Assembly (NCBI GenBank): GCA_003598135.1
Contig: QZKA01000024.1
Coordinates: 619 to 64,618, forward strand
Reading direction: 5' to 3'
Length of the DNA stretch: 64,000 nt
From: Candidatus Omnitrophota bacterium
Lineage (GTDB): Bacteria; Omnitrophota; Gorgyraeia; Gygaellales; Profunditerraquicolaceae
How positions within the stretch are numbered: position 1 is the stretch's first letter; each line of letters opens with the position of its first letter. The translations under genes were made by a program, and so were the position numbers. A model generated the notes under the pieces. It saw only the letters and a list, made by a program, of their open reading frames with translations, made no database searches and was not told the DNA's origin. Below, piece by piece: positions 35,425-64,000 of the stretch.

Positions 35425-35495
35425 AGCGGGCGAAGGGAATCGAACCCTCCTATCCAGCTTGGGAAGCTGGTGTTCTACCGATGAACTACGCCCGC
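35425..35495 (-). tRNA. tRNA-Gly (anticodon CCC)
   Basis: The reverse complement GCGGGCGTAGTTCATCGGTAGAACACCAGCTTCCCAAGCTGGATAGGAGGGTTCGATTCCCTTCGCCCGCT folds as a cloverleaf with anticodon loop UUCCCAA. CCA is not encoded. Confidence 0.8.
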
Positions 35496-46106: not shown

Positions 46107-47013
46107 TAGATAACCTTTCGTTTATAATCGTTTTACTGGCTTTTAGTTCGCGCGCGCTTGAGTTACGGTGTGCCTCAATTATTTTAATAGTAGTTTCTTT
46201 AAGAAACCCGTTAAGGATACTAAAGTCAAAAGTGCCTGTCCCTGGCGCCTTGTGGTCATTGCATCCAGCCAGATCATGCAAGTGTACGCCGATAAGAGGC
46301 TTTTTAAAATTCACAATATAATCGTTATGACTAAGAAATCCCAAATTTTCCATTACCTGCGCATGGCCGGTATCGTGCCAATAGCGTAAGTTCGAACCCC
46401 TGAATTGCTGAAAGATATGCACGAGTTCTTCAAAGGATGGGATCTCACGGTAATAAAAACGATTCTCAAGCCCCAAAAGAACGTTATTCTCCCCTGCACA
46501 GCGGTTTAATTCCTCTAAGCTTCTAAGCGCGCTCTGCAGGAAAGGCTTACATTTTCTTTCCCTTTCTTTTATCGCTTGGTTCTTTTCTTTTGAAAAGAGT
46601 CGAAAATCCTTTTTGTTGTATAAAGATATGAGTCTCTTTGTCCTATCGGCGATTTCAACCCTTCCGCAATGTAGCACTACGGCTTTGGCACCAAGGCAGG
46701 CCGCAGTAGCAATAGTTCTCTTGGTATAGCGTATGGCAAGGCGCCTTTCCTCCTTATCCAAAGAAGCCAATGAATAACAATCGGGGAGGGCTTTTTCTCT
46801 GGCCAGACAAGCGGGAATGGGACAAAAGTTATGAATACTTAAAATGCGGCAGAGTTTCTTTGCAACGAGCTTTTTAAACCCGTTTACAATAAAAGAGTTG
46901 AGGTTATAGCTCAACTCAAACGTATTAAATCCGAGTACTTCCAACTCTGATGTTATAGCCCCTGCGCAATGGTGGCGATACGCATTCCAGGCAGTCGAAA
47001 CACCCAGGGCCAT
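46087..47013 (-). CDS. xylose-isomerase-like TIM-barrel sugar-phosphate isomerase/epimerase family protein
   Basis: Fold-level resemblance only (MALGVSTAWNAYRHH...LHDLAGCNDHKAPGTGTFDF). Confidence 0.5.
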   Translation of the reverse strand: MALGVSTAWNAYRHHCAGAITSELEVLGFNTFELSYNLNSFIVNGFKKLVAKKLCRILSIHNFCPIPACLAREKALPDCYSLASLDKEERRLAIRYTKRTIATAACLGAKAVVLHCGRVEIADRTKRLISLYNKKDFRLFSKEKNQAIKERERKCKPFLQSALRSLEELNRCAGENNVLLGLENRFYYREIPSFEELVHIFQQFRGSNLRYWHDTGHAQVMENLGFLSHNDYIVNFKKPLIGVHLHDLAGCNDHKAPGTGTFDFSILNGFLKETTIKIIEAHRNSSARELKASKTIINERLSSGRRNS

Positions 47014-48621: not shown

Positions 48622-48648
48622 AGGAATGTTAGGCCTTACAGCCTTACT

Positions 48649-49629
48649 TTATAACGGTTTTATTTCAGAGTCTCCGTAATGAAACACATAATTTAAAAAT
48701 ACTCCTGGGCAATATTGCTCAATTTGACAATGGAAACATTTGCTTAATTTGTGGTACGAAAAAACCCTCGTGTACAAAAATATTGCATCAGATATATCGT
48801 TCTCTATTTTACATAATAAATTCGTTTTATAATTTTTGCTGCAAGAGACTGTCTTGGAAAATTTTTCTGGTGACAGCTCTTTTAAAACACACAAAGGAAA
48901 ACCGACAAAATTAAAATTAGAATTTCTAAATTTCCTTATTATTTCTTTATAAGAAGGTATTAAGCTTTTATAGGGAAGCTTGGCCTTATATTTAAGATGC
49001 AGTATCGAAAGGGGTACTTTTGTTACCTTAGCGCATAGACTAATTATTTTATCTACATGGTTTATATTTTGCTTAAGTAACAATGTGTGCAGATAAATTT
49101 TTACCCCTGGATGTGACCTTAGATTATCCACTCCGCTTCTCAGTAAATTATAACTCTTGTGATTAGCAACTATCTGATTATGCAATTTATTTATACCGTA
49201 TACCGGAATGGATATATTCCTTAATCCGTATCTTACTAGTTTTTCTGTAAATGACGAATTCGAAAAAAATTCTCCGGAAGATATGGTTTCAATTGTCTTA
49301 AAACCATACTTATTTGCAGATTCTAACAAATCCAAAATCCCCGGATAACGCAATGGTTCATTAGCGGCAAGAAGCAAGTGAGATATGTTATTTTTTCTAT
49401 TTAAATGCATCGAATTTTTTAGGCTGGCAAGAATTGAATCGTTATAACCTTTCTTAGGATCATCTTTATGAAAACAAAAAATGCAATAATTACAACATCC
49501 GGTCTGGAAACTTATAATATTATACTTCTTATTACACCCGAGCCCCTTTAATAAATGAAGCTGTTTATCGAATGGGGCAGTAAAAATACTTAAAAGGCCT
49601 TTATTATCTTGGTTAAAATCTAAATACAT
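48649..49629 (-). CDS. radical SAM protein, ~300-aa paralogous family member (copy 1)
   Basis: CCNYCIFC is a CxxxCxxC motif. The C-terminus reads CFHCQIEQYCPG...GDSEIKPL. Closest relative is the second domain of the 694-aa fusion (LHTLLLKQN). Confidence 0.75.
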   Translation of the reverse strand: MYLDFNQDNKGLLSIFTAPFDKQLHLLKGLGCNKKYNIISFQTGCCNYCIFCFHKDDPKKGYNDSILASLKNSMHLNRKNNISHLLLAANEPLRYPGILDLLESANKYGFKTIETISSGEFFSNSSFTEKLVRYGLRNISIPVYGINKLHNQIVANHKSYNLLRSGVDNLRSHPGVKIYLHTLLLKQNINHVDKIISLCAKVTKVPLSILHLKYKAKLPYKSLIPSYKEIIRKFRNSNFNFVGFPLCVLKELSPEKFSKTVSCSKNYKTNLLCKIENDISDAIFLYTRVFSYHKLSKCFHCQIEQYCPGVFLNYVFHYGDSEIKPL

Positions 49630-49641
49630 ACATTCTAATTT

Positions 49642-50784
49642 TTAAAAATACGTTTGACTGATTTTTCCAAAAATTAACAAATTTATTATAGGAAATTTAA
49701 CTAATACCGTAATGAAGGCGCCTAAAAATATAAAGGGCGCCAACGGCAAAGTTTTATATATCTCTATTGTTTCCGATGAACGATTTCTCAATAAGTCCGT
49801 TCTAACTTCATTAATTTGATCTTGAGTTAAGCCATCAGGATAGAGTTTACCAATTTTTTTGAAACCAAATTTCAAAATTGACTCATCAGTAAGCTGTAAC
49901 CTATCCGGCAAGTTTGCAACCGGCACCTCTTCTATTATATCATTTCTTAAAGAAAGCAATTTCCGGAGAGAATAAAAAAGCACAAAAAAGTAAGTAAAAT
50001 TCTTTAAGTACACAATAAAACTAAGAATCGCACTTGATCCGAAAATAATGAAAGAATTAACTAGAAGGCAAATCATTAAAAAACTTGAAAAAACAAGAAT
50101 GGATACATGTTTCAATAGGGTTTTATTGAATGTTCTATACAACAAAAGCGGCATTAAATAGCTCAACATTGACAAAGAAGAATCCAATTTTAGTTGAGGA
50201 AAATTCATATTAAGCACAACCAACTGAATCAACATAATAAAAGTAAGGTAACTCAACACAAACCTTAAACATTTAAATATTCTCTTTTTGATATATTTAA
50301 AAATATTTTTTAAGGAAAACAAAAAAACGTCATAAAAACTGCGAGAGCCGCTCTGTAATACCTTATTTTTAATAAAAACAACTACTTTCGTGAAATAAAC
50401 AGCTAACAAGAAAATAAAAAGCAACACAAAGACATTTGTTAAGAAAACAATTATGGGATAAAGCGGCAAAATTTTCTGAAAGGGATTTACTTTTAAAAGC
50501 ACAAAAAATGAAAACATAATAAAAAGCTTAGAATCTCCGGCAGCCCAGAATCCAAAATACCAGATTAAAAAGGCGACCAAAGTTATTAACGCGGCGTTTA
50601 TAATCACAAAAGAAAGAAAATGGAAACTCAAATACTTGAACAACAGCAAATACATAAAACTTATAAATGAAAAAAATATGCCTACGATTACCAAATTGTT
50701 CTTAATTTTTGAATATCTGATGTCGCTATACGAACTAAACAAACCGATGATCAAAAATATTAAAAAATAAATAAAATTTTCCAT
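49642..50784 (-). CDS. polytopic membrane protein with a split prepilin-peptidase (A24/TadV-like) aspartyl-protease signature
   Basis: SYSDIRYSKIKNN parallels the D(L/I)RxxxIPN motif, WAAGDSKLFIM parallels GxGDVKL, and the C-terminal TLPLAPFIFLGAF parallels PFGPFLALGA. A ~200-aa multi-TM insertion sits between the motifs. Confidence 0.55.
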   Translation of the reverse strand: MENFIYFLIFLIIGLFSSYSDIRYSKIKNNLVIVGIFFSFISFMYLLLFKYLSFHFLSFVIINAALITLVAFLIWYFGFWAAGDSKLFIMFSFFVLLKVNPFQKILPLYPIIVFLTNVFVLLFIFLLAVYFTKVVVFIKNKVLQSGSRSFYDVFLFSLKNIFKYIKKRIFKCLRFVLSYLTFIMLIQLVVLNMNFPQLKLDSSLSMLSYLMPLLLYRTFNKTLLKHVSILVFSSFLMICLLVNSFIIFGSSAILSFIVYLKNFTYFFVLFYSLRKLLSLRNDIIEEVPVANLPDRLQLTDESILKFGFKKIGKLYPDGLTQDQINEVRTDLLRNRSSETIEIYKTLPLAPFIFLGAFITVLVKFPIINLLIFGKISQTYF

Positions 50785-50829
50785 TTAAGATTTAATGTTT
50801 CTTGCAGCTAATTTTGCGTTTCGGTCCGG

Positions 50830-51807
50830 TTAACGAGTAGCATGAATTCTTCTTATAATTACATCGGGATTACAAAAAATGGGATAGAGTTCTTTGCTTC
50901 CGTAAATATTGATATATTCTTTTTGGATTCCCGCACAAATTCTATTGGCCGAACAATGGGCGCAACACTCAACTTTAATTCTAAATTTCGTAGGCTTCAC
51001 CTGCCTTAATTTATCCGTCCTTTTTTTACTTATAAATGAACAAATATAAAGTTCATTCTTGACTATTTTCCTGGTTTCAGACGAAAGCTCTTCAAAGCCT
51101 TGCATATAACATAATGGAACTCGCTCAATTCTCATTGTCCTCTCATGCGTTCTCAGCAATTCAACAGTTTTCTTCAACTCCAGCTCGATATCTGTATACC
51201 TTGCTACAATCCATTGGTTATTTACTACCCTACTATTAATTTCACCATCCGCCTTCCCCGGGTCGAGATTATTATAAACAAAATGTTTTATACCAGGAAA
51301 AGCCTTAATGAAAAATTTCGCAGTGTTAGACAGATTTTTACAATTAAGCGTATTTATAGTACTATTGAGCGCCACATGGAATCCTACTCTCAATGAGTTC
51401 TCTAGCCCTTTTATTGCCTTTTTAAAATGGCCTTTCTTTTGAGATAATTTGTCTGCGATGCTGCTGCTATCGGAATGAATCGAAATATTTATATCCCTTA
51501 AACCAGCCTTAAAAAGTTTTTTAGTTAAGCGAGGGTCCTCCAGTTTGCAACCATTCGTTATGATCCTGCTTGCAATGCCGTTTTTTTGAATAAATGATAT
51601 TACTTCCGGCAAAAAGCTTACCAATGTCGGTTCTCCGCCAGTAAGAATAATTTCAGTGATGTTCTGTTTTTTTAAAGCGATAATTTTGTTTTTTATTTCA
51701 CCTAAGCCATAATTTTTTTTAAATTGGGGGTTAGAACAAAATAAACATTCATTATTACATTCCCGGGTAATCTGAAGATAAGCTGCTTTTCTAGACCTTG
51801 GGCTCAT
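50830..51807 (-). CDS. radical SAM protein, paralogous family member (copy 2)
   Basis: CNNECLFC, GGEPTL, ISIHSDS, ERVPLCYMQGFEE and the C-terminal CCAHCSANRICAG. Confidence 0.75.
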   Translation of the reverse strand: MSPRSRKAAYLQITRECNNECLFCSNPQFKKNYGLGEIKNKIIALKKQNITEIILTGGEPTLVSFLPEVISFIQKNGIASRIITNGCKLEDPRLTKKLFKAGLRDINISIHSDSSSIADKLSQKKGHFKKAIKGLENSLRVGFHVALNSTINTLNCKNLSNTAKFFIKAFPGIKHFVYNNLDPGKADGEINSRVVNNQWIVARYTDIELELKKTVELLRTHERTMRIERVPLCYMQGFEELSSETRKIVKNELYICSFISKKRTDKLRQVKPTKFRIKVECCAHCSANRICAGIQKEYINIYGSKELYPIFCNPDVIIRRIHATR

Positions 51808-51819
51808 CGGAGGCGTAGT

Positions 51820-52746
51820 TTATTTAAAAGTAAATAATAAAGGTTTCTCGTTTTTGATTTTACCCACCTCTTTATCGTTAAGAAAAACGGAAATGGTTTT
51901 TTTACCAAGAATAATGTTATTTCCGTTCTCAAGTCTATTATACGCACAAAGATAATTTCGATCTTTCTCAAAGCCGTGGTTTTGATTTATGCTTTTATAT
52001 ATGAAATTATAACGGGCGCTTCCTGCTGACATATCAACACTATTAAAAAAAAATGTTTTTCCGTTATTCAAAACAAGTACAGGAAGCTTTAAAAAAAACT
52101 CAATGTATTCCCGAATTTCAGTTTCCGAAACACAAATCGAATTTAGGACTTTTTGCGCATACTTTTTTGACTCATTACACGTATAAGAACATGGAAAATG
52201 TGAAATTAGCGCCCCAAAACGAGAGCCGGGGAATGCGTGTAAATTGTTTAAGTAAAATGAAGGCGTTCCTTTGGTATTCTCAAATGCACTAGATATTAAT
52301 TTTATTGATGGAGAATTTGTATTTTGTTTAAAGAAATTTATGCAGCATTGTGGGTATCCTAATAAATGGCCTATGGTTTCATCAACCATAGAGAAAAACT
52401 TTCTTCCTGACGAATATATACCTTTTATTCTTTTATCTTCCTGCTCTTTTAAAGCCTTAGCAAGTTTTGGTAATTTCGATGCGTAAAATATTATTTGGCC
52501 GCCATGGCTATGTAAAGGTGCCGCCCTTAACATCTTTTTTGTTCTTTTGATTTTATAATCGGAATGGGTTATATATATTCCGTTTTTCTCATAAATTTTT
52601 TTTATTCCTTTAAATTGCCCATGGTCGATTATGCTTCTCTGTGTAGGCTTAATACCATTTCTCAATGCCAAATACTCAAAATTAATATTTTCAATAACTT
52701 TGATGGCTTTCAATATATGTTGCGTATCGATTTTAACTCTACTCAT
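51820..52746 (-). CDS. hypothetical Cys-motif protein (308 aa) embedded in the rSAM cluster
   Basis: Motifs HLLGYPQCC and HFPCSYTC. No recognisable family. Confidence 0.4.
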   Translation of the reverse strand: MSRVKIDTQHILKAIKVIENINFEYLALRNGIKPTQRSIIDHGQFKGIKKIYEKNGIYITHSDYKIKRTKKMLRAAPLHSHGGQIIFYASKLPKLAKALKEQEDKRIKGIYSSGRKFFSMVDETIGHLLGYPQCCINFFKQNTNSPSIKLISSAFENTKGTPSFYLNNLHAFPGSRFGALISHFPCSYTCNESKKYAQKVLNSICVSETEIREYIEFFLKLPVLVLNNGKTFFFNSVDMSAGSARYNFIYKSINQNHGFEKDRNYLCAYNRLENGNNIILGKKTISVFLNDKEVGKIKNEKPLLFTFK

Positions 52747-53663
52747 TTGATCGGGGCGAGCTCAAGCCAGCCTATCTTTTCAGCATACGTTACATCAATC
52801 CCGCTGCATAATTTGTAGTGCCTGCAAGGTGAGCAAATCGGTGTTTTTGTAGTAGCTGAACTACGGTGGAGCATTGTCTTTTCTTTATTTTTAATATAGT
52901 ACGGTGTTTCTGGAATCCCTACATAATTCTCGTAACCACCCATTAGGCAAAATGGCATAGTTTCTATCTTAATGGGCAGCTCTTTTTTGTCGCCATACGA
53001 ACGCTTTAGTTTGTCAATCGCTTTTTTAAATTCTTTCGCTAACTCTGAGTATGAAACAAAGAGCTGATTAAAAAATTTATCTGCATTTCCTGCATACATG
53101 AGGGTGTTCAGTATTATACAATCGATTTTTTCGAAAGCCAGCAACATCTTAATAAGAAAATAAATATTTTTATAATTTAGCTTGGTAAGCGTAGAACATG
53201 TATTTACCTTTAACCGAAAAATATCTTTTAAGGCAACTATATTCTTCAATCCTTGGACGGTTTGCGCATATCCATTGGGAGTACGAGTTAAAGCTTCATG
53301 AATTTTTTTTGAGCTTCCATGGATAGAAATATTGACTTCTGTTAAGCCTGCTTTGACGAGCTCATCGACATAGCTACCGTAACTCAGCAATCTTCCGTTT
53401 GTTTGAAGGCAAATGTGTTTATATCCTTTTTGTTTCGCTAATTTAATAAAATTAGTTAAATTTTTATTAAGCGTGGGTTCGCATGTAGTAAAAAGCATTG
53501 AGTCAAGCGATTCGATCTTTTTACTTTGTTTTAAAAACCCTTCGGGTGTAAGCCAAGCAGCGTTTTTAAAAGACAGGTCCGGTTTGCGATCAGAACAAAA
53601 AACACAATTATTATTACAGGCAGCGCTTGTAAATATGGTAAGCCGGTCATTATCCATACGCAC
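52743..53663 (-). CDS. radical SAM protein, paralogous family member (copy 3)
   Basis: CNNNCVFC, ISIHGSSKKIHEALT, ETMPFCLMGGYEN and CSPCRHYKLCSG. Confidence 0.75.
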   Translation of the reverse strand: MRMDNDRLTIFTSAACNNNCVFCSDRKPDLSFKNAAWLTPEGFLKQSKKIESLDSMLFTTCEPTLNKNLTNFIKLAKQKGYKHICLQTNGRLLSYGSYVDELVKAGLTEVNISIHGSSKKIHEALTRTPNGYAQTVQGLKNIVALKDIFRLKVNTCSTLTKLNYKNIYFLIKMLLAFEKIDCIILNTLMYAGNADKFFNQLFVSYSELAKEFKKAIDKLKRSYGDKKELPIKIETMPFCLMGGYENYVGIPETPYYIKNKEKTMLHRSSATTKTPICSPCRHYKLCSGIDVTYAEKIGWLELAPIK

Positions 53664-53698
53664 CCTATGTTACTATGCTTCTACTTTCTCAGCCGTAT

Positions 53699-55783
53699 TC
53701 AAGGTAAACTGGTTAATGGCTTAAATTCGCCATCGCCATACAGCTTTAAATATAGGTCGGGAATCCCCATACAAAAATTATTTAATTTGCATTGACTGCA
53801 TTTAGTCAAAAAAGATATTTTATCTTCCATATACGTTCCTTCATTACAAAAAATTAACCTGTTCATTGAAATTTTAACGAAAGGATTGTTTTCATAAAAA
53901 TTACCTGGTTGAAGCAATTCGTCTTCAGTATAACCGGATATGGCACTTTTTAAATAAAATTTTGGCAACACACAATACGGTATCCTGATTTTAGCACGGT
54001 CCATAACCTTGTTATGCTTTAATATTTTCGCAATGTCAGAGAATTTAGGAGCAAATTCATAGTAATCGCGCTGGTCGCTATTTCTTGGTCTTACCATGCA
54101 AAAATTTATCGGAAATATTCTAAAGTAAGAAGCAATAAAATCGTATATTTTGGATATAAATAAATAGTTTTGCTTCAAAAGCAAAGAGTGCAACATTATT
54201 TCTACCTTAGGAAATCTCTGCAAATTCCTGATTGCGTTTAATAAGATTTTGAAGCTCCCACGGGAACCAGTAATTAAATCGTGAGATTCGTCATTATATC
54301 CATAAATGGACAATTGGACTTTGTCAACACCGGAAGCACAGAACTTACGGGTAAAATTAAAATTAATCAATCTTTCGCCAGAAGTGGCCAGCCTAATTTC
54401 TCTATAGCCTAATTCTTTCGCATATTTTATTACTCTTAATAAGCCCGGGTAATTTAAGGGTTCATTGCCTCCTATCCTTAGCGTATCTATTTTCAAGCTA
54501 TTGTGGATATAGGATAAATCTGATTCTATCTTATTCGGCTTTACCACAATTTCCTTATTTTTTTTGTTTTTCAGAGAACGCGAGCAAAAAATACAGCCTT
54601 TTTTACATGGAGAAGGAATTTCGCAAGAGACAAAACAGTTTTTAGAAGATTTTTCTGGTATGGGCACTAAGACTTTATATCCGTTGTTTTTAATGCGGCC
54701 GCACTGCATTCCATCGCAGGTAGCGGTAAATTTACATAAAGCGCATCTAGGGCTTTTTACAAAATAACGGTTTTTTATAAAAAAATCTAGAAAGTCAAAT
54801 ATATCTATATCATGGCCTTTATTAACTATCGGCTGACTTTCAAGCATCCTTTCAGAAATCTCGTTGTTTTTTATGCAATACGGCATATTTTTTGGCTTGA
54901 GGATACCGTCACGTTTAAATAACGATATGTCATCGCAAAAACTTTTCAAAACACAATAATCGCACCGAGTGCCTTTGCATCTTAAAGTAATATTATTTTT
55001 AAGATATTTCTCAAATTCTGCTTTTCTCCCCATTACTTCATAAAATAATTTTGCAGGGCTCTGTATTAAGTCTTCATAACCTTCGAAATATTGAGCGGGA
55101 AAACGGTTTGTGAAAATATTTAATTTTCTGTTTTTTGATAATTCAAATGCCTTTTTCAAATAGCTTAATTCTTTTTCAATGTCATAAAAAAGGATACTTC
55201 GATTATTCCACGCCCTACCAAAAGGCACTATTTGTAATAAATCAAATTCGCTTACGCCTATTCCTATAAAAAACTTTATAATACTTTCAAGCCTCCTTAC
55301 ATTTAATTTATTAACAACGATATCTTGGCTTACAATTAGCTTAGGAGACTTTAGCGCATTAATTAATCCCGCTAACGACTGAAAATAAGAGCCAGCTACT
55401 TGCGTTATACGATCATGGGGTTTTTCCTCGCATTCATGAATAGAAAAAGTTATCTCTTTTAAGCCGGAGGATATTGTATCCTGTAAAAAACTCTTATATG
55501 CAAACATCCTCCCGTTAGTTATAACCTGTATATGGCTATATCCTATCTTATTTGCGAATCTAACAATCTCTTGAAATCTTGGATGCAAAGATGGCTCTCC
55601 CCCGCTCAAAACTGCCCTTCTTATATTTTCTTTCCGCCCCTTCATTAATTCAGATTTCACTAGAGAGAACTCGATACAACTTCCGTCTTGTGATTCATAA
55701 TCCAAACAAAAAAGGCATCTATTATTGCACGCCTTAGTTAATCGGACCCAATATCTTTTTTCCTCCGGAGAACTTTTTGACAT
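53699..55783 (-). CDS. tandem double radical SAM protein (two complete rSAM domains, 694 aa)
   Basis: Domain 1 has CNNRCLFC, GGEPSL and SIHECEEKPHD. The linker carries CDYCVLKSFC and CALCKFTATCDGMQCG. Domain 2 has CKKGCIFC, GGNEPL and the C-terminal CSQCKLNNFCMG. Confidence 0.75.
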   Translation of the reverse strand: MSKSSPEEKRYWVRLTKACNNRCLFCLDYESQDGSCIEFSLVKSELMKGRKENIRRAVLSGGEPSLHPRFQEIVRFANKIGYSHIQVITNGRMFAYKSFLQDTISSGLKEITFSIHECEEKPHDRITQVAGSYFQSLAGLINALKSPKLIVSQDIVVNKLNVRRLESIIKFFIGIGVSEFDLLQIVPFGRAWNNRSILFYDIEKELSYLKKAFELSKNRKLNIFTNRFPAQYFEGYEDLIQSPAKLFYEVMGRKAEFEKYLKNNITLRCKGTRCDYCVLKSFCDDISLFKRDGILKPKNMPYCIKNNEISERMLESQPIVNKGHDIDIFDFLDFFIKNRYFVKSPRCALCKFTATCDGMQCGRIKNNGYKVLVPIPEKSSKNCFVSCEIPSPCKKGCIFCSRSLKNKKNKEIVVKPNKIESDLSYIHNSLKIDTLRIGGNEPLNYPGLLRVIKYAKELGYREIRLATSGERLINFNFTRKFCASGVDKVQLSIYGYNDESHDLITGSRGSFKILLNAIRNLQRFPKVEIMLHSLLLKQNYLFISKIYDFIASYFRIFPINFCMVRPRNSDQRDYYEFAPKFSDIAKILKHNKVMDRAKIRIPYCVLPKFYLKSAISGYTEDELLQPGNFYENNPFVKISMNRLIFCNEGTYMEDKISFLTKCSQCKLNNFCMGIPDLYLKLYGDGEFKPLTSLP

Positions 55784-55793
55784 AATGGCGTTA

Positions 55794-56720
55794 TTAATTC
55801 TCCTCCTTCTTAAACTCTTTCTGGCCGTATTTTCTTAGGTATTCTTGCCAAATGCCCCAGCAATTACTACTCACTGGACAATTCTGACATTCTTTAACCT
55901 TCACATAGGTAATGATTTTATTTTTTGATACCGCATAATACTCCCTGTACTTTGTTACTGATGAATGGGGTAAAAAATTTTCTTCATTTCTGGAATCACC
56001 GTATCGAATCGAGTTATTTTTAAAGTATTTATGAAAATAGCAGCCAACCGGTGGGTTAAGCAAGCACCATGAGAAACCAAGGCCTTGTCCTTTATCTAAG
56101 GCACGTACTATATAAGGCGCTGCTTCTGATATACGCGGCGTGAGGCTTTTAAATATAGATTCATTTTTCGTGATTATATACATAAATTCCGCCCTCTTTA
56201 TCTGATATGCAAGTAAGATTTTACCAATAGACGGCAAATATTTGTAATTTTGCTTGGTAATCGTAGTATTGGTTCCTATCTGATTGAACCCTAATTTTTT
56301 TAAATTTTCTATCCCTTTTACTAATTGCTGAAAACTCCCTGCTGTATCGGTAAGATAATCGTGCACCTTGGGGCTATGGCCGTGCAAAGAAAAATCTATT
56401 TCTGATACACCGGATTTTATCAATTGCCGGGCAAAATCGTCGTACGCCAACATTCTGCCGTTTGTACTTATTCTCACTTTTTTAAAACCGATTTTTTTTC
56501 CGTATGCAATCAACTCGCAAATGTCCTTCCTTATAGTCGGTTCTCCTCCGATTAGATTAAGCCAGCTCTTCCCGATCTTTTTTGCTGCTAAAATTTCACT
56601 TTTAACTTCTTCTGTCGTTTTCTCGGACAGATGACGGTTCTCCCGGTCATAACAAAATAGGCAACCGTTATTACATTTAAATCCAAATACAATAGCGGCA
56701 TGATCGCTTATGTTGTTCAT
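55794..56720 (-). CDS. radical SAM protein, paralogous family member (copy 4)
   Basis: CNNGCLFC, IGGEPTI, FSLHGHSPKVHDYLT and CQNCPVSSNCWG. Confidence 0.75.
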   Translation of the reverse strand: MNNISDHAAIVFGFKCNNGCLFCYDRENRHLSEKTTEEVKSEILAAKKIGKSWLNLIGGEPTIRKDICELIAYGKKIGFKKVRISTNGRMLAYDDFARQLIKSGVSEIDFSLHGHSPKVHDYLTDTAGSFQQLVKGIENLKKLGFNQIGTNTTITKQNYKYLPSIGKILLAYQIKRAEFMYIITKNESIFKSLTPRISEAAPYIVRALDKGQGLGFSWCLLNPPVGCYFHKYFKNNSIRYGDSRNEENFLPHSSVTKYREYYAVSKNKIITYVKVKECQNCPVSSNCWGIWQEYLRKYGQKEFKKEEN

Positions 56721-57649
56721 ATAGCAAACTCCTTGTCTTTAAATTCAAGGTAATATCTTTTAAATATCCCGCCGCAGTTACTACTCATAGAACAGCTTTC
56801 GCATACATGGATCTTAATCCTATTACGAGTCGGATAACAACTCAAAGTTTCCTTTAAAAATATATTTTTAGAACTTTTCCGCTGCTCAACTGTTATTCTA
56901 GGGGACCAGTGAAAATCATTAGTGTAAAGTTCATAACCCTTTAGCACGCAAAGAGGAAGCCCAAAAAATCTAATAATTAGAGCTTTTTTATTCGCATATT
57001 CAACTAATCGAGGGACTGCCGTTTTTATTTCTTTTAAAGGAACAACTAATTTTTTAAAATTAGCCAATCCATTTCCTTCCGGGGCGAAGTTAGAAAAAAG
57101 TATTTGTTTGACTTTTTTAAAATTGCTGACCAAATCGATTACCTTCTCAAGTGAGCTAACATTATATTTAGTAATAACTGTGTTAATGAACAAAAAAATG
57201 TCCCCCTTTGACCTTTCAATATTTTCTAATGCGTTCATACATCTGCTGAAGCTTTCTCTGTTGGCGGTGTGAAGATTATGAAGCGTTCCGCTATGACCGT
57301 GCAGAGAAAAACAAATTTCATCAACATAAAAAAGAGTTTTATCGCAAAACCTTTTTAAGGAAAATAAGCCTCCGTTAGAACTACAATACACTGTATACAT
57401 TAACTGCTTTGCGGATTGGATTATTTCTACAAAACTCGGGTGAAAAGTCGGCTCTCCCCCTGTTAATGTAATGTGGTTTAAGCCTTTTTCGGCAAAATAT
57501 TTTAATTTATTTTGTATTATATTGAAGTCAACAAAATGGTTATTACGTTTATTTAATTGGCCTGCCTCGGAACAAAAAATGCAGTTATTGACACATTTAT
57601 ACGATATGTGAAATTCTAATCTCTTTGCCTTAGATCTATTTCCCGTCAT
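56717..57649 (-). CDS. radical SAM protein, paralogous family member (copy 5)
   Basis: CVNNCIFC, TGGEPTF, FSLHGHSGTLHNL, GLPLCVLKGYEL and CESCSMSSNCGG. Confidence 0.75.
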   Translation of the reverse strand: MTGNRSKAKRLEFHISYKCVNNCIFCSEAGQLNKRNNHFVDFNIIQNKLKYFAEKGLNHITLTGGEPTFHPSFVEIIQSAKQLMYTVYCSSNGGLFSLKRFCDKTLFYVDEICFSLHGHSGTLHNLHTANRESFSRCMNALENIERSKGDIFLFINTVITKYNVSSLEKVIDLVSNFKKVKQILFSNFAPEGNGLANFKKLVVPLKEIKTAVPRLVEYANKKALIIRFFGLPLCVLKGYELYTNDFHWSPRITVEQRKSSKNIFLKETLSCYPTRNRIKIHVCESCSMSSNCGGIFKRYYLEFKDKEFAI

Positions 57650-57651
57650 CT

Positions 57652-59070
57652 TTATCCATAAAGTAAGTAAGATAGTTGGAAGTCAATATTCCGGTATTCA
57701 TTCTTATTCTTATCAACTAATCCTGAATATCTAGCCAAAAAACGACCATCAAGAAAGCAATTTGAATAAATGTATCTTTCACATCTTGTTTTCGCAGATA
57801 ACGTAATAAAATTTCTGTCTTCTCCCACGGGGCACATTTTTTTTATTAACTTGAGTTCCCTTGGATATAGCTTTTCGGGTTCTTCATTGAATATTTTTTG
57901 AAACAAATTTTTATCAATTCTCCCTTCTTCCTGAATAGAGTTTATTATATTGAAACGCATCTCTAAATCCTTTGATAATTGGAACGCGAAGAGTTTAGGG
58001 AAAATATTTCGTTTGAGATTTCTTTCATAATCCGGATAGTGTAGGTCTTTTACGTAGTACATCTTTTTAAACGCATGTGAGATTGCCCCCCACCCTAATC
58101 CCAAAACCGAACTATTAAATTTATACATGTCAAAAAATTGTAAATTTTCTTTATTTGTACTGTAATCCTCCAACGCATAAGGATACGCACTGCTAATCAT
58201 CTGGTACGCTAAATCGAGCATCTTTTTACAGCGGATTACATCACTAAAGTTTAATGTAAGGCCGTTTTTAGTAAACCTTGTAAAAACATCTGGACAAAAA
58301 GAGTTAACGTGGATAGTATCTGGTTTCAGTTTTAAAATATTTTTTAACGAGATTTGGAACGATTCAATTGATTGATAAGGAACCCCTGCCATCAAATCAA
58401 CATTGATATGGCGTATCTTCAATTTTCTACAATTTTGATATAGCTGAAAAACTAATTTTGCATTTTGCGGCCTTTGGAGTTTCTTGAGGACATTTTTATC
58501 CAGCGATTGAACTCCGATAGTTACTTTGTTTACCCCATAATCCTTAAGTATTTTTACTTTCTCATAAGAGCACGTGTATGGGCTAAGTTCAACCATAAAT
58601 TGCTCTTTATTCTCCACATTATAATTTTCTGAAATCATGACCATGAGTCTTTTGAGATTGGCAGATGATAATATTGAAGGCGTACCGCCACCTATATAAA
58701 CGGTTTTTGCTTCCAATTTCTTTGGAAAATCCAATAATTTTATTTCTTTTTCCAGTGCATTAAGAAAGCGGGAATGTGACTGATCATTAGTCTGGGGGAA
58801 TGATAGGGTGTTACAATAAAAACACTTGCTGACACAAAATGGAATGTGGACATATATACCGAATCTATCGTGGCTACCCTTCTCTTTAAGGATGGATGTC
58901 GCAACAGATCGCCAAGATTTTTTTACTTCCTCTAGGCGTATTGATCTTCTTTGGAGTCTCAGTACCGAATACGGCGTTCCTAAGCCATAAAAAATCAAAT
59001 CCCTGGTTATGCACTTAAACAGCTCAAGCTTCTTATTAACTTCATTACTTAAAAGGGACAAGTTCGGCAT
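57652..59070 (-). CDS. HemN/HemW-like radical SAM protein (coproporphyrinogen-III-oxidase family)
   Basis: YVHIPFCVSKCFYC, GGGTPS and VTIGVQSLD. Confidence 0.75.
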   Translation of the reverse strand: MPNLSLLSNEVNKKLELFKCITRDLIFYGLGTPYSVLRLQRRSIRLEEVKKSWRSVATSILKEKGSHDRFGIYVHIPFCVSKCFYCNTLSFPQTNDQSHSRFLNALEKEIKLLDFPKKLEAKTVYIGGGTPSILSSANLKRLMVMISENYNVENKEQFMVELSPYTCSYEKVKILKDYGVNKVTIGVQSLDKNVLKKLQRPQNAKLVFQLYQNCRKLKIRHINVDLMAGVPYQSIESFQISLKNILKLKPDTIHVNSFCPDVFTRFTKNGLTLNFSDVIRCKKMLDLAYQMISSAYPYALEDYSTNKENLQFFDMYKFNSSVLGLGWGAISHAFKKMYYVKDLHYPDYERNLKRNIFPKLFAFQLSKDLEMRFNIINSIQEEGRIDKNLFQKIFNEEPEKLYPRELKLIKKMCPVGEDRNFITLSAKTRCERYIYSNCFLDGRFLARYSGLVDKNKNEYRNIDFQLSYLLYG

Positions 59071-59971
59071 CCGAATATTTTAAGAAATATTTTTCGTAAA
59101 CGCCTCCGCATATGCTATTCTTTGAGCATTTTTTACACTTGCGGGTTTTTATTCTTCCGATATCGATTTTAAAATTGTTTTCGATATATTTCCCCGGCTC
59201 ATTCCATAATCGTATTTTTCCATTATGATCTTTCTGATTATCAATTTTGAAGGGTTCCCATAAATCATAGGAATACTGATATCTATCTCCTAAAATACAC
59301 ATAGGAATACCGGAAAACCTGATTTTAATATTTTTGGACTCGCAAAAGTTTATTGCTTTTATTACGTGTGGGGAAAGAACAGAAAATTTAGGAAAAATCT
59401 CGTAAAATTTTCGGCTCCCCTCTCCTGTAGGTACAATAGACATACATTGATATTCGTTTATTCCAAAATTATGAATCAACTCAGCTATGTTGGTTAAAAA
59501 TTTATAATTAAGACTGGTTATCGCAGTGGTTGCTTGAAGTCTGCCCTTATAATATTTCTTCAGATTTTTCATTCCTTGAAAGACAGATTTAAAAGCTGCC
59601 GGGTTACGGGTATTAATTGAATGAATTTTATTATTATGCCCGTGTATAGAAATCATAATTTCGTCGAGATAAGGCAATGTCTTGATGCAAAACTCATAAG
59701 AGCTGAACATAATTGCATTTGAAATAATAAATGTATTATAATGTAATGCCTTTGACAATTTTAATATTTCGGGAAAATGAGAATGTAATGTTGGCTCCCC
59801 TCCTACAAAGTGTACAAGATTTGCCCCTTTAGACCTTTCAGCTACTAATATATTCTTAATTTTCTCAAATGAGAGCTCAGAGCCATCAAGGTTATTTCTT
59901 TCGCTGCAAAAAATACATCTATTACAGCATTTTTTTACAATAAAAAGGTCAATTCGTCTGGTGTGTACCAT
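59045..59971 (-). CDS. radical SAM protein, paralogous family member (copy 6)
   Basis: CNRCIFC, VGGEPTL, ISIHGHNNKIHS, GIPMCILGDRYQ and CKKCSKNSICGG. Confidence 0.75.
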   Translation of the reverse strand: MVHTRRIDLFIVKKCCNRCIFCSERNNLDGSELSFEKIKNILVAERSKGANLVHFVGGEPTLHSHFPEILKLSKALHYNTFIISNAIMFSSYEFCIKTLPYLDEIMISIHGHNNKIHSINTRNPAAFKSVFQGMKNLKKYYKGRLQATTAITSLNYKFLTNIAELIHNFGINEYQCMSIVPTGEGSRKFYEIFPKFSVLSPHVIKAINFCESKNIKIRFSGIPMCILGDRYQYSYDLWEPFKIDNQKDHNGKIRLWNEPGKYIENNFKIDIGRIKTRKCKKCSKNSICGGVYEKYFLKYSDAELVPFK

Positions 59972-60905
59972 ATTCGTAAGGAAGAACTGAACAATACATA
60001 CTAATCTCTTTGGCCCTGGTAGAATTTAGAAAGGTCAATCCCAGGGCAGTAGGATAAATACAACTGTGAAATGTCGCATAAAGATTATTTAATCCGTAGA
60101 TAAATTTATTTATACTCAAAAGGGGAACTTTCAACTTCTTGATATCTGACCATCTTTCTTTCGGATTAAAATTGCACTGGAATTCTCTGGTTTCATAAAT
60201 TAAATAATTCTTCAGAAAAGCTATCGTTCCTGGTTTTTTTAATTTGACCGCAGCAAGGTAAAATACATTTTTCTTTGGTGAATTTTTGAAAAATACGCTA
60301 AATTTAGATTTGAAGTCGTTATGCAAAAAGCTAAATTTGTTTAATTCTTGTAGCGCATGATACCTAAAATAAAGCTTAATTGACATTTGATTACTATTCG
60401 GGCAAAGCACTAATGCAAGCGCACAGATTTCATATCGTAAATATAAACCGACCATATTCGGATCGTAGCCCGATATCAAACACAACTTATACAATATATC
60501 GTTTTTCAAAAAAGGGCCGCATTCAACTTCAATTTTTAAAGTGGGGGCCCTGTCTGATTCAGCCCACTCAAACCCCAAAGTGACTGGAAAAGCTTTAATT
60601 ACATAGATTGCTTTTTCCGCTTGTTGTCGCAATTCCCCATCGTAACACAATCGTATTATTGAACGTATTTTATTGAGAAATTCGACTCTCTCCCCTGAAT
60701 CATTAATACTAAATCTCAAAAGATGTTTAGGCCTTCTATTAATTTTAAAAGAAAAATCAAACTTAAAAAAATCAAGACTACGCATTTGGTAATCATCAAA
60801 GAGGATTTTGATAATACATGGGAAATTTTTCTTTTCATAAATATTATTTTCTCTTGCAATTTGTTCTATAATATTTCTGTAACAAGTAAGGATGTTAGTG
60901 CTCAT
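59949..60905 (-). CDS. hypothetical protein (318 aa) homologous to the C-terminal domain of the 624-aa rSAM fusion
   Basis: KFDFSFKINRRPKHLLRFSINDSGERVEF aligns with KFDFSISASDSNARSLRFSYNDFGEKKEF at residues ~330-360 of ORF 61951..63825. Confidence 0.45.
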   Translation of the reverse strand: MSTNILTCYRNIIEQIARENNIYEKKNFPCIIKILFDDYQMRSLDFFKFDFSFKINRRPKHLLRFSINDSGERVEFLNKIRSIIRLCYDGELRQQAEKAIYVIKAFPVTLGFEWAESDRAPTLKIEVECGPFLKNDILYKLCLISGYDPNMVGLYLRYEICALALVLCPNSNQMSIKLYFRYHALQELNKFSFLHNDFKSKFSVFFKNSPKKNVFYLAAVKLKKPGTIAFLKNYLIYETREFQCNFNPKERWSDIKKLKVPLLSINKFIYGLNNLYATFHSCIYPTALGLTFLNSTRAKEISMYCSVLPYEYGTHQTN

Positions 60906-60913
60906 TTAAAAGA

Positions 60914-61957
60914 TTAAAAACTGCGATTGGCTAATGCGTTATTTAAATATGCAACAAAATTTGACATTAATTGGCCCGCTAAGATAGTATTATTCAGATA
61001 TTTGGTAACATTATTTTCACGGAAAATTATTTCCATTGCTTCTTCATTAGTAAGCCGCTTTTTCTCAAACGCATCCATACTCTCTTTTATTTCGTTGATA
61101 TTCCCCAGGATGAACTTCCTTTTCCTTTCATAGTTTTGAATTAAATAACTGATACACGCAGAGTAGATGTTTCCGTCAAAATCCACGGATATCTCTGTAT
61201 TCATCCTAAATGGCGGGAACCATTCTGTCAGGTTTTGCAACCGAATATCATTTTTTAGTCTTAGTTTTAAATACAGACTCCTTAATTTAATCAGATTCCT
61301 TGCCAAAACTATTCTATCGTTGTTTGACCATTTTACTCCACAGGCAATCATTATGAATATATTTCTAAAGCCTAAATTTACTAAATGGCTGAAATTGTCA
61401 ACAATTCTGCCCACTGTCATGGGAGAAACTACCATACTGACCTGGCAATCTGTATTATATTTAAAAATTATCGGAAGGTTGCGGACAATAAGAGAATACG
61501 AGTCGGGTAAACCATTCTTTTGCGGCCTATTTAACCTCTGCGCTCCAGGGCCTCCATCCAGACTTAGCTCAAGAAGTACATTGTTTTCTTTGAAGAACCT
61601 TACTTTTTCTTCATTCAACAATACTCCGTTTGTTGTAAGAATAGGGGTTAATTTTCTTTTTTTGGCATTTGCTACTTTGTTTGCATACATTATTCCTTTC
61701 TTTAAAATCTTGAAAGGCAGCATTAGTGGTTCGCCGCCGAAAAAATGCAATTGTAAAACGTCTGCTGAGGAAGTCATCAAAAAATCGACAGATTTAAGCA
61801 AAACGTGCTCGGACATATATCTTTTTGAACTTTGCGATACAAAGCAGTATTTGCACTTCAAACAACAGTCATGGGTTAATAACAGTAACAGTCTAGTTGT
61901 TCTAAACTCAGTCCGCTCCCCTATTAAATTGTTTCCTTTTTTTTCTGAAATCACCAT
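60914..61957 (-). CDS. anSME/SPASM-like radical SAM core lacking the C-terminal Cys-rich domain
   Basis: LLLLLTHDCCLKCKYCF, FFGGEPLM and ELSLDG. There are no C-terminal cysteine clusters. Confidence 0.65.
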   Translation of the reverse strand: MVISEKKGNNLIGERTEFRTTRLLLLLTHDCCLKCKYCFVSQSSKRYMSEHVLLKSVDFLMTSSADVLQLHFFGGEPLMLPFKILKKGIMYANKVANAKKRKLTPILTTNGVLLNEEKVRFFKENNVLLELSLDGGPGAQRLNRPQKNGLPDSYSLIVRNLPIIFKYNTDCQVSMVVSPMTVGRIVDNFSHLVNLGFRNIFIMIACGVKWSNNDRIVLARNLIKLRSLYLKLRLKNDIRLQNLTEWFPPFRMNTEISVDFDGNIYSACISYLIQNYERKRKFILGNINEIKESMDAFEKKRLTNEEAMEIIFRENNVTKYLNNTILAGQLMSNFVAYLNNALANRSF

Positions 61958-63825
61958 TTAACCGTAAAATAGACGTCAGCCTTTTGGGAACCCCTTGCAT
62001 GATCAATGGCCGCGATCACTGGAAATACTTTTCTTCCTTTTAATGCGCATAAACTGCAGATCTCTGAAAAAACTTCATTCGCCGCTTTGTCATTTGAATT
62101 AATCAATATGTTCCTAATTTCAGGCGTAACCTGATTAGAATCTTTGATTTGGCTAATTTCATAGATTTTATATAATTTGATTGAATTAATACAGCCGTTC
62201 TCCTGGAACCTTTTAGTGATGTAATAAAATACCTTCAACTTAGATTCGCCCTTATTTAAAATTGATTTTAGAAGCTTTCTGGCCGCATTCAACCCATTCT
62301 TCCTTAAAAATTTTAAAAATGTTTTTTCGTTTACTTTTTTATGAATACAATATACTTTAAGGTTTATGTTTTTTTTGGGCAAAAAATCTACGCAAATCGC
62401 ACCAATAATAGCGCGAGAGTTAATTTGTAATTTCTTATAATCGATTTTCAATACCTTACAAATACGTTGCAGAAAAATCCTGATTTCTGATTGAGTAAAG
62501 GAATGAACCAATTCTTCAAAATATACTTTTATTTTTGGGTAATTTTCCTTGGAAAACCAAACCAAACCAATGGTCGTTTGTTGCTTATTGCCGAACGGGA
62601 TCATTACGCATAGCAGTTCATTTATTTGATTAATGGAGTAAGCATCGCCGAATAATTGAAAGATTTTCAATAATTTATTTTTGAACTCTTTTTTCTCCCC
62701 AAAATCATTATAGCTAAACCGTAAACTCCTTGCGTTACTATCGCTGGCTGAAATTGAAAAATCAAATTTTTGGTTATCTTTAAGCCATGATTCTTTAAAA
62801 TCCGTGAAAAGAATATTTGTTATTCTGTCAACTTTCTCTTTTAAAAACTTCAGGCCAAAGTGCTTAATTAACAAATTAGAAATATCTGTAAAAATAGAAA
62901 CGGTAGAAACACTGCCTTTGTTATTTAATACAAACCCTTTTCTAACGGGTTTAAATTCATCCCATCCGAATTTCTGCGGATACTCCCTCCAGGGTCCTTC
63001 ACACACTGCGTAGTACCGACATTTAGGACAATTTGTTGATTTACTTTTCCCTTCCTTTTTACGAACAAGCCCAAAATTTTCTATAACTCCATTTACATCG
63101 TATATCTTTGTTTCGGGCAAAATCCTCTCAGCAATATAATCCTCGTAGCCCCTCATGAAACAATAAGGAATTGCCTCGGTCATCACTCTCTTTCCAGCAG
63201 AAATGCCTTTTTCTAGTGCCATCTTGACAAACGGTTCAACCAGTGACATCCGGGGCACTATAGAATCAAAGTTATCTTTTGCGCTTCCTAAAGGGTGAGG
63301 GAATGCGAATTGGAACTGGTCAACCCCGAGCCTAATCAATAAATCTGCTATCGAGGGCAAATACGCAAAATTAGACTTGGTTATGACGGTATTGGTAATA
63401 ACCGTCTGCCCTAGTTTTTTTAAGTTTATTATCCCATCAACAGTTTGTTTAAAGCTACCCGGGGAGCTTGTGAGGTAATCGTGCATATGGGGGGTACTTC
63501 CGTGCAAAGCAGGAGAAAATTCATTGGCACCGCATTTAATCGCCTTTTTGCAAAATTCAGAATAAGAAAAAAAACGGCCATTAGATTGGATTTGAATTGT
63601 ATTGAAGTTCAATGCTTTGGCAAAAGCAACAAATTGAAAAAAGTCTTTATGTAAGGTAGGCTCTCCGCCGGTAAAGACTATATCGCGACAGCTTGTTCTC
63701 GCCTTCTCCATTTCATTTTTTATAATTCCGGTATCCCTGCTTCCGTATGCCTTGCGCTTGTCGCCCTGAACGCAAAATTTACAGAAGTTATTACAATTGA
63801 ATCCAATCTTTATATCGGCTTTCAT
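61951..63825 (-). CDS. radical SAM (family copy 7) fused to a ~300-aa C-terminal domain of unknown function
   Basis: CNNFCKFC, TGGEPTL, PALHGSTPHMHDYLT, EAIPYCFMRGYED and CPKCRYYAVCEG, followed by a domain paralogous to ORF 59949..60905. Confidence 0.75.
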   Translation of the reverse strand: MKADIKIGFNCNNFCKFCVQGDKRKAYGSRDTGIIKNEMEKARTSCRDIVFTGGEPTLHKDFFQFVAFAKALNFNTIQIQSNGRFFSYSEFCKKAIKCGANEFSPALHGSTPHMHDYLTSSPGSFKQTVDGIINLKKLGQTVITNTVITKSNFAYLPSIADLLIRLGVDQFQFAFPHPLGSAKDNFDSIVPRMSLVEPFVKMALEKGISAGKRVMTEAIPYCFMRGYEDYIAERILPETKIYDVNGVIENFGLVRKKEGKSKSTNCPKCRYYAVCEGPWREYPQKFGWDEFKPVRKGFVLNNKGSVSTVSIFTDISNLLIKHFGLKFLKEKVDRITNILFTDFKESWLKDNQKFDFSISASDSNARSLRFSYNDFGEKKEFKNKLLKIFQLFGDAYSINQINELLCVMIPFGNKQQTTIGLVWFSKENYPKIKVYFEELVHSFTQSEIRIFLQRICKVLKIDYKKLQINSRAIIGAICVDFLPKKNINLKVYCIHKKVNEKTFLKFLRKNGLNAARKLLKSILNKGESKLKVFYYITKRFQENGCINSIKLYKIYEISQIKDSNQVTPEIRNILINSNDKAANEVFSEICSLCALKGRKVFPVIAAIDHARGSQKADVYFTVKW

Positions 63826-64000
63826 CAGTTTAAAGAAGAAATGAACTCGGTAAGCTTATAATCTATATTAATCGTGGATTTTAAGACTCTGAAAGGAGTA
63901 CATTTTTCGACAATTTTACCGAGATCTGCCTGCATAATCAAGCGTTTTATTTTTTTTAAACTTCTAATTGAATTAACGTTTCCGAGTTTAAATTTTTTCG
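63826..64000 (-). CDS. 3' end of an upstream minus-strand gene in the same operon (partial, unknown function)
   Basis: The open frame ends ...KLTEFISSLN, and its stop overlaps the start of the following gene (atga). The gene begins beyond the window. Confidence 0.4.

Follow-up and report, generated by a model that had tools for sequence, protein, structure and literature searches.

Within a 64,000-nucleotide stretch of a Candidatus Omnitrophota genome (contig QZKA01000024.1 of assembly GCA_003598135.1, positions 619 to 64,618; hereafter the window), eight open reading frames (ORFs) encode nine related radical S-adenosylmethionine (SAM) domains that resemble HxsC, which in the His-Xaa-Ser (HXS) system acts as the second radical SAM maturase. 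The locus is probably an enlarged, unpublished variant of this known maturation system. We consider it probable that the region constitutes the downstream two-thirds of a very large HXS-type maturation operon, embedded in a horizontally acquired island of low GC content and equipped with nine HxsC-like enzymes. An earlier, sequence-only reading of the same DNA had picked out the shared motifs and had named no family.

The eight ORFs, here called A to H, lie between positions 48649 and 63825, all on the minus strand and at the coordinates given in that reading, with D being a tandem protein of two domains, D1 and D2 (Table 1). In a MAFFT alignment the nine domains of about 300 residues behave as one family, and their motifs are in register position for position. 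In a regular-expression scan every single-domain ORF has one CX3CX2C and ORF 53699-55783 has two, while Cx2Cx5C occurs near the C-terminus once per domain, except for D1 with its two copies. Common to all nine are CX3CX2C, an E-P pair and the C-terminal Cx2Cx5C-x-G, and the cysteine of a PxC motif upstream of Cx2Cx5C is kept in eight. Invariant columns (numbered as in H) comprise the three radical SAM cysteines, F17, E55, P56, N134, N152, C266, C269, C275 and G277. Pairwise identities are only 20-36%, but BLASTP scores of 100-169 bits within the window speak for homology rather than chance. Membership in the radical SAM superfamily follows from CX3CX2C, the motif for the SAM-cleaving [4Fe-4S] cluster, from Pfam PF04055, above its cut-off in all eight ORFs, and from a (βα)6 core in the AlphaFold2 (AF2) model.

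Some details of the signature need revision. The GGEPTL motif varies to ANEPL in A, GNEPL in D2 and TCEPTL in C, and the HG of SxHG is replaced by YG in A and D2. Similarly, GYE, thought to be general, directly follows the PxC position as GYE or GFE in five of the nine domains (B, C, D1, F and H); D2 has a displaced GYTEDE, and A, E and G have none. The PxC cysteine lies 67-92 residues from the C-terminal end, not about 60 as had been estimated.

To which family do these domains belong? The best NCBIfam matches for all nine are HxsC4 (NF038332) and HxsC (TIGR03977), far below the curated cut-offs. HxsC4 ranks first for six of the eight ORFs and matches B, F, G and H end to end, tail included; the H domain scores 166 bits with HxsC4 and 108 bits with HxsC. 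Two canonical HxsC proteins served as references, one from the hxsDBCA operon of a Klebsiella plasmid and one from a Rhizobium plasmid. Along the entire core they can be aligned with the window domains, and they carry the identical (Y/F)PLC...Cx2Cx5C-x-G tail, column for column. Since canonical HxsC has the same tail, the signature first noticed in this DNA is that of the HxsC family. As judged by these alignments and scores, the window proteins are HxsC-like and not HxsC equivalogs. NCBIfam also holds models for the variant components HxsA2, HxsA3 (NF038309), HxsA4 (NF038313), HxsD_rel (NF038315) and HxsC4, which means that variant HXS types are recognized at the database level. Our literature search found no publications on HxsC4, HxsC2, HxsC3 or their model accessions, none on multi-HxsC arrays or a fusion of radical SAM and prenyltransferase domains, and nothing relevant on DUF483 with radical SAM or on Omnitrophota with prenyltransferase.

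The only experimental HXS study found in this search describes the Escherichia coli system as an antiphage system that acts by a block of DNA entry (Li et al., Nat Commun 2026, PMC13128918). There, both HxsB and HxsC are required for HxsA to mature and to acquire a +8 Da change on an SHRSS motif, and HxsD is bound by HxsC. In the accompanying survey 99.8% of the systems consist of four genes and 99.7% are found in Pseudomonadota (PMC13128918). Within the window, PADLOC returns generic viperin-core matches only.

The connection to HXS is made by a sister locus. The contig ends inside the cluster (56 bp past window position 64000 on the matching contig Ga0104761_1000182), which accounts for the absence of HXS genes from the window, where no HxS-repeat ORF was found in any of the six frames. 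The best relative is a locus of Omnitrophota MAG207 (L007), in which the ortholog of H is 90% identical, with 76-92% for the orthologs of G, F, E, D1 and D2. Upstream of its H ortholog, L007 encodes HxsD (TIGR03976, 59.8 bits against a cut-off of 50; recognized by NCBIfam, not by Pfam), a 69-residue HxsD-like protein that passes HxsD_rel (NF038315, 63 bits, cut-off 41), HxsB (TIGR03978, 481 bits, cut-off 370) and a small precursor ending in ...GGHSSHGSHSSHGSHGQW, whose best match is HxsA3, below cut-off (C-terminal end ...HSSHGSHSSHGSHGQW). The same upstream region holds the complete, 309-residue version (L007:9072-10001) of the gene that is truncated at the end of the window (63825-64000). 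These upstream genes suggest that the window holds the tailoring part of an HXS-type operon. By analogy, its substrate would be encoded just past the contig end: an HxsA3-like protein in which a conserved leader and a hydrophobic helix precede His-Gly/Ser-Ser repeats with a Trp at the end.

The nine copies had been described as an expansion, which might suggest a local burst of duplication. A recent burst of this kind is ruled out by the best-match analysis, as every window paralog is closer to an ortholog in a distant phylum than to any copy within the window. Best matches in another phylum are 63% identical for H, 56% for D1, 53% for B (in an archaeon), 45% for F, 41% for E and D2, 37% for C and 34% for A and G, whereas the best in-window paralog of each domain reaches 27-34%; the expansion must hence be ancient. 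With single-linkage clustering at 40% identity, the B type turns up in 45 loci besides the window, the D1 type in 39 and the F type in 13; H, B and D1 are each represented in dozens of loci, H being the universally conserved member. Judged from these relationships, the paralogs look like an old, co-inherited toolkit of distinct enzymes.

How widely is this toolkit distributed? A scan of species-representative genomes with an alignment of H-type orthologs confirmed 577 stretches, in Omnitrophota, Patescibacteria of the candidate phyla radiation (CPR), DPANN archaea, Elusimicrobiota, Myxococcota and others, and orthologs from CPR, DPANN, Myxococcota and further groups share 53-69% identity with H. 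Calling ORFs in 86 fetched loci and searching them with a nine-domain profile yielded 319 near-full-length family domains. Arrays are the norm among the fetched loci: five to nine copies occur in CPR, Elusimicrobiota, Schekmanbacteria and DPANN loci, with nine in one Saccharibacteria and one Schekmanbacteria locus, seven in Moraniibacteriota and Elusimicrobia loci and in L007, and four to six in many others. Among 1.84 billion cluster representatives (50% identity clusters), a profile of the tail alone finds 2,026 at E ≤ 1e-3. Three to five tails occur on some individual proteins; P0122 (1028 residues), P0128 (1318 residues) and P0132 (1054 residues), with four to five tail matches per polypeptide, suggest fusions of three or more HxsC-like domains. 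The family also extends to a Clostridium perfringens plasmid (NZ_CP075938.1, L089, 21968-22882), where a 304-residue member, 27% identical to H and with a full tail, is accompanied by an NHLP-clan leader peptide, DUF6365 proteins, a sugar nucleotidyltransferase, a second radical SAM protein, MtnK and MetK; here the family has another kind of context, resembling that of ribosomally synthesized and post-translationally modified peptides (RiPPs).

Proteins with HxS repeats are encoded in 23 of 87 surveyed loci. Most of these precursors share a leader of the form P-x-IKK-x-(I/L)K-x-FL-x-SEEGKI-x-KK, after which come K-x-G, a hydrophobic helix and (HGS)n, with Trp as the last residue. Searched as a regular expression, the leader matched 18 ORFs, 17 of which are HxS precursors. 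The shared leader is present in L002, L004, L007, L008, L010, L013, L015, L023, L025 and others. We take the combination of FLxSEEGKIxKK...K-x-G and hydrophobic helix to be reminiscent of Flp/Tad prepilin or class III signal peptides; Pfam detects no Flp or pilin domain in the precursors. Pilin-like genes of the N_methyl type lie downstream in L004. In two Myxococcales loci (L024 and L046) the HxS-repeat proteins contain 16-18 HGS units, and the FLxSEEG leader gives way to a twin-arginine-like signal (TRRDLV...AQA).

The cysteine pattern also bears on the chemistry. Of the 319 family domains, 317-318 retain CX3CX2C, 314-315 Cx2Cx5C, 265 the PxC cysteine and 262 all four tail cysteines. An AF2 model of the H domain, built on an alignment of 83 sequences, has a mean predicted local distance difference test score (pLDDT) of 96.1. 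It places C222 directly after the last strand of the (βα)6 core, followed by a β-hairpin (strands 239-243 and 246-248), a helix (251-259) and the cysteines C266, C269 and C275. Such a hairpin-plus-helix arrangement is the subdomain topology of SPASM and twitch structures, and among solved structures the twitch enzymes SkfB (PDB 6efn) and BlsE (7vob) come closest in fold. Given the cysteine conservation and the modelled topology, the best reading remains the one first proposed, namely that the PxC and Cx2Cx5C cysteines should hold a single auxiliary Fe-S cluster of the twitch or partial-SPASM type. Such a ligand pattern, with one cysteine before the hairpin and a SPASM-style Cx2Cx5C after the helix, is not known from SkfB, BtrN or MoaA.

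A different picture emerges for D1, in which the cluster ligation had been called degenerate. The PxC cysteine is indeed absent, in 44 of 44 D1-type orthologs, but nearly all of them have an extra cysteine four to five residues before Cx2Cx5C (CX4-5CX2CX5C), and 19 of the 44, the window copy included, add a second PxC...(43 residues)...Cx2Cx5CxG unit that amounts to a second family tail. In the window the D1 tail reads C269x4C274x2C277x5C283, then PYC303...(43 residues)...C347x2C350x5C356-D-G-x3-C361 (54662-55129). With a relocated cysteine that is conserved in the subfamily and a second full motif, the domain is more than simply degenerate. D1 has probably not lost its cluster, and its cysteine pattern suggests a rewired first site and a second site, in a SPASM-like arrangement with two auxiliary clusters.

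Several accessory proteins complete the cluster. The C-terminal half of H is homologous to a stand-alone ORF of 318 residues, which aligns with it throughout, and the same domain is found on twelve H-type fusion proteins in the database. Sequence-level searches of this domain (Pfam, NCBIfam, PDB sequences) gave no match. AF2 predicts for residues 301-624 of H (pLDDT 87) five α-α-β-β units, that is, the ten-stranded antiparallel prenyltransferase (PT) barrel of ABBA enzymes. The alignment contains conserved Lys/Arg and Tyr residues on the strands (K133-x-Y135, K190-x-Y192, K250-x-Y252 and Y319). Since the precursors are rich in His and have an invariant terminal Trp, it is an attractive idea, based on the predicted fold, that these domains might prenylate a Trp or His of the precursor. 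The A24-like membrane protein has both aspartate motifs (SYSDIRY and AAGDSKLF), and its homologs co-occur with the HxsC-like family in 35 of 87 loci, the one in L002 with a faint precomputed Arc_PepC match. Homologs of the DUF483 protein adjoin family members in L002, L003, L005 and L006; a PDB sequence search gave no relative with a solved structure. The best NCBIfam match of the B12-binding radical SAM protein is a lipid-biosynthesis B12/radical SAM family, at 60 bits. A ladderane or lipid pathway was considered on these grounds and rejected, as the cut-off is 360 bits and the context is HXS.

From these elements a mechanism can be sketched. The substrate would be handled together with HxsB, HxsD and the HxsD-like protein. 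Each paralog might use a 5'-deoxyadenosyl radical to abstract a hydrogen from a His-Xaa-Ser unit, with the auxiliary cluster helping to complete an oxidative cross-link or rearrangement. Because the paralogs are ancient, separately conserved subfamilies, they would most likely divide the chemistry by step, every step recurring along the array, and not by site with one common step. Methyl or C1 groups could be added by the B12 and HemN-like enzymes, the ABBA-fold domains could prenylate the terminal Trp or a His, and the A24-like peptidase could remove the leader. The biological role might be defence, as for E. coli HXS, or the formation of a surface or metal-binding structure.

This assignment has to be weighed against several observations. 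The window domains score 48.6-147.6 bits with HxsC, whose cut-off is 267.9 bits, and at best 190.9 bits (domain C) with HxsC4, whose cut-off is 500. They also lack the N-terminal extension of about 90 residues of canonical HxsC: CX3CX2C starts at residue 97-101 in the Rhizobium and Klebsiella proteins, at residue 11-19 in eight window domains and at residue 45 in A. The missing extension and the low scores imply that the window domains may bind HxsD or the peptide differently. Furthermore, no precursor, HxsD or full HxsB is encoded on this contig, and the link to an HxS substrate rests on the sister locus. Many H-type loci, mostly in Myxococcota, have no HxS peptide within 10 kb, and some family members are found among glycosyltransferases (L005) or sugar-nucleotide genes (the C. 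perfringens plasmid).

The last points would fit a different scenario, in which the paralogs would not act directly on backbone or side chains of the peptide, but would make or tailor a moiety (small molecule, sugar, nucleotide or isoprenoid) destined for attachment to the HxS protein or for some other use. The structural neighbours BlsE, viperin and GDGT-MAS, which are nearly tied, act on nucleotides, sugars or lipids; the absence of an N-terminal extension for peptide recognition, the predicted ABBA prenyltransferase fold with its implied isoprenoid donor, and the sugar nucleotidyltransferase, MetK and MtnK genes next to the C. perfringens member all agree with it. Nevertheless, we regard it as unlikely: HxsC, the sole studied member, is genetically required for the maturation of HxsA and binds HxsD (PMC13128918), the best structural match, SkfB, is a peptide maturase, and the largest arrays (L023, L025, L010, L027, L007 and L004) all come with HxS precursors and HxsB, and mostly with HxsD. 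A division of labour by site, which the sequence-only reading had entertained, would have all paralogs perform the same reaction, each dedicated to one repeat or position of the precursor. Nine divergent copies facing a repetitive substrate might be explained in this way, and the roughly five HxS units of the L007 precursor, alongside seven or more paralogs, make one enzyme per site numerically possible. Yet the repeats are near-identical HGS or HSS triplets that offer nothing to tell sites apart, and the counts of HxsC-like domains and of HxS triplets show no correlation (Spearman rho -0.06, n=22), three domains occurring with 16-18 triplets and six with 50. The H, B and D1 subfamilies recur in loci with very different repeat numbers, and the D1 type, with its different cluster complement, points to different chemistry. 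We therefore disfavour this idea and hold it to be quite improbable.

One might finally suspect that most copies are catalytically dead relics or scaffolds and that one or two are active, considering the very low identities, the altered SAM-binding motifs of A, C and D2 and the loss of GYE in A, E and G. This is hardly credible, since all nine domains keep the three radical SAM cysteines, the E-P motif and the Cx2Cx5C-x-G tail, both cysteine motifs are nearly invariant in the family as a whole, and the conserved orthologs of each paralog in distant phyla imply purifying selection. An HXS-type operon with nine HxsC-like enzymes is thus the explanation that we prefer.

The layout of the cluster is summarized in Table 1. 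All long ORFs beyond about 47.3 kb are encoded on the minus strand up to the end of the window, tightly packed or overlapping, and four radical SAM domains of other families share the operon (60914-61957, 63825-64000, 57652-59070 and 47278-48621). The GC content is 0.34 in the cluster (47278-64000) against 0.46 in the flank (1-47000), with a sharp boundary at about 47.2 kb, where it steps from 0.37 to 0.44 at the B12-binding gene. The L007 cluster is likewise GC-poor (0.37-0.39 against 0.45 in its flank). The similar GC of the two flanks and the closeness of the two clusters make an Omnitrophota host probable. Such a low-GC island suggests horizontal acquisition from a low-GC lineage.

Table 1. 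Features of the HXS-type cluster, listed from the contig end inwards (window coordinates; lengths in amino acids, aa; scores are NCBIfam unless stated otherwise).
Feature	Position	Strand	Remarks
Truncated SPASM-less HxsB-like radical SAM gene, 3' end	63825-64000	-	Translation ends ...NGDIYPSNAFF...FISSLN; runs off contig
H, radical SAM and ABBA-fold fusion, 624 aa	61951-63825	-	
H, N-terminal HxsC-like domain, aa 1-296	62938-63825	-	CNNFCKFC, GGEPTL, IPYC222...C266x2C269x5C275-E-G
H, C-terminal domain, aa 301-624, predicted ABBA (PT-barrel) aromatic prenyltransferase fold	61954-62925	-	
HxsB/PapB-like peptide-maturase radical SAM protein, 347 aa, without SPASM cysteines	60914-61957	-	PapB 146 bits, HxsB 98 bits
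Stand-alone ABBA-fold paralog, 318 aa	59949-60905	-	BLASTP to H C-terminal domain 27% identity, E 3e-12
G, HxsC-like radical SAM, 308 aa	59045-59971	-	PMC225 and C279x2Cx5C; no GYE
HemN/HemW-like (class C) radical SAM	57652-59070	-	STM4012 family 170 bits, HemN 158 bits, both below cut-off
F, HxsC-like radical SAM, 310 aa	56717-57649	-	Ortholog in L004 45% identical; F-type in 13 other loci
E, HxsC-like radical SAM, 308 aa	55794-56720	-	SWC219 and C278x2Cx5C; no GYE
D, tandem protein, 694 aa	53699-55783	-	Two CX3CX2C motifs
D1, first domain of D, aa 1-374	54662-55783	-	Nine C-terminal Cys; Ala in PxC column
D2, second domain of D, aa 375-694	53702-54661	-	CKKGCIFC, GNEPL, PYC604, C662x2Cx5C
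C, HxsC-like radical SAM, 306 aa, GTG start	52743-53663	-	PFC239...GYE...C277x2Cx5C
DUF483 protein, 308 aa, GYPQCC and HFPCS motifs	51820-52746	-	Pfam DUF483 29 bits, cut-off 25
B, HxsC-like radical SAM, 325 aa	50830-51807	-	HxsC 102 bits; 53% to uncultured archaeon ortholog (L038)
A24 (prepilin/preflagellin) aspartic peptidase-like polytopic membrane protein, 380 aa	49642-50784	-	Pfam Peptidase_A24 24.5 bits, cut-off 26.5
A, most divergent HxsC-like radical SAM, 326 aa	48649-49629	-	HxsC4 78 bits; CCNYCIFC, ANEPL, PLC247, C298x2Cx5C
B12-binding radical SAM, 447 aa, last island gene	47278-48621	-	Pfam Radical_SAM; B12-binding below cut-off

Some entries deserve comment. The matches of the 347-residue protein to PapB and HxsB are below cut-off and cover only the N-terminal two-thirds, and its C-terminal third has a single cysteine. 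The nearest relatives of D2 are A within the window (27% identity) and a domain of L010 outside it (41%). Gene calls were compared with those on contig Ga0104761_1000182 of the Joint Genome Institute (JGI; sample 3300007354), the reverse complement of the window, which are shorter for D (602 residues), the HemN-like ORF (360 residues) and the HxsB/PapB-like protein (287 residues). The 694-residue reading of D is right, as the shorter call would remove a CX3CX2C motif, while the N-terminus of the HemN-like ORF may be over-extended. A 264-residue ORF on the plus strand (61167-61961), antisense to the 347-residue radical SAM gene, is probably spurious. Directly downstream of the island are genes for an AmmeMemoRadiSam system protein B (Memo-like) and a TIM-barrel protein similar to xylose isomerase (45288-46106 and 46087-47013). 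A few kb upstream of its cluster, L007 has an AmmeMemoRadiSam-type radical SAM gene together with a Memo/AMMECR1 fusion (28-2854). The sole Rfam match within the window is a tRNA gene (35425-35495, minus strand).

What could such arrays tell us about HXS maturation? HxsC appears as the founder of a much larger and ancient set of radical SAM subfamilies of the twitch type. These are found jointly, up to nine to an array and chiefly in uncultured lineages with small genomes, and one branch has recruited a prenyltransferase-fold domain without sequence relatives among solved structures. Of the chemistry of HxsB and HxsC, the +8 Da shift is all that is on record for the E. coli system. As the arrays have one enzyme type per gene, they offer a natural dissection of the pathway and could make the HXS modification tractable. 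They may define a new class of peptide or protein modification in CPR, DPANN and Omnitrophota. A bolder reading, which we put forward as a tentative and rather doubtful one, sees a widespread undescribed pathway in which up to 13 radical SAM domains from four families, together with ABBA-fold domains, turn the poly(His-Gly-Ser) tail of a small protein with a Flp/pilin-like leader into a heavily cross-linked, possibly prenylated polymer, which would be processed by an A24-type peptidase and displayed on the membrane or in a filament. If true, this would add a class to the known post-translational modifications of proteins, one served by a dedicated fusion enzyme of radical SAM and prenyltransferase domains.

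Among known systems, the closest comparison is with canonical HXS. The window domains agree with HxsC (TIGR03977) in CNNxCxFC, GGEP, the PL(Y/H)...VHD region and the (Y/F)PLC...Cx2Cx5C-x-G tail, and the sister locus encodes bona fide HxsB and HxsD along with a His-Xaa-Ser repeat protein. They differ in the spacer between PxC and Cx2Cx5C, which is about 43 residues long in the window domains and 24 in canonical HxsC, and in number, with nine copies against one. With regard to the curated variants, the precursor of L004 scores 65.0 bits with HxsA3 (NF038309), exactly at the cut-off of 65, and those of L007 and L025 match HxsA3 best but below cut-off. The short C-terminal subdomain of β-hairpin and helix modelled for H, with enough cysteines for one auxiliary cluster, resembles that of SkfB and BlsE; the alignments cover 234 of 300 residues at an identity of just 18-21%, and viperin, GDGT-MAS and SuiB score nearly as well. 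The C-terminal domain of H (residues 301-624), in turn, is alike in predicted fold to the ABBA prenyltransferases, whether of the DMATS type (MpnD, CymD and FgaPT2), the His prenyltransferase FunA or the RiPP enzymes PatF, PagF and DciF, but has 8-12% identity and no detectable sequence similarity to them, and it differs from all of these by its fusion to a radical SAM domain.

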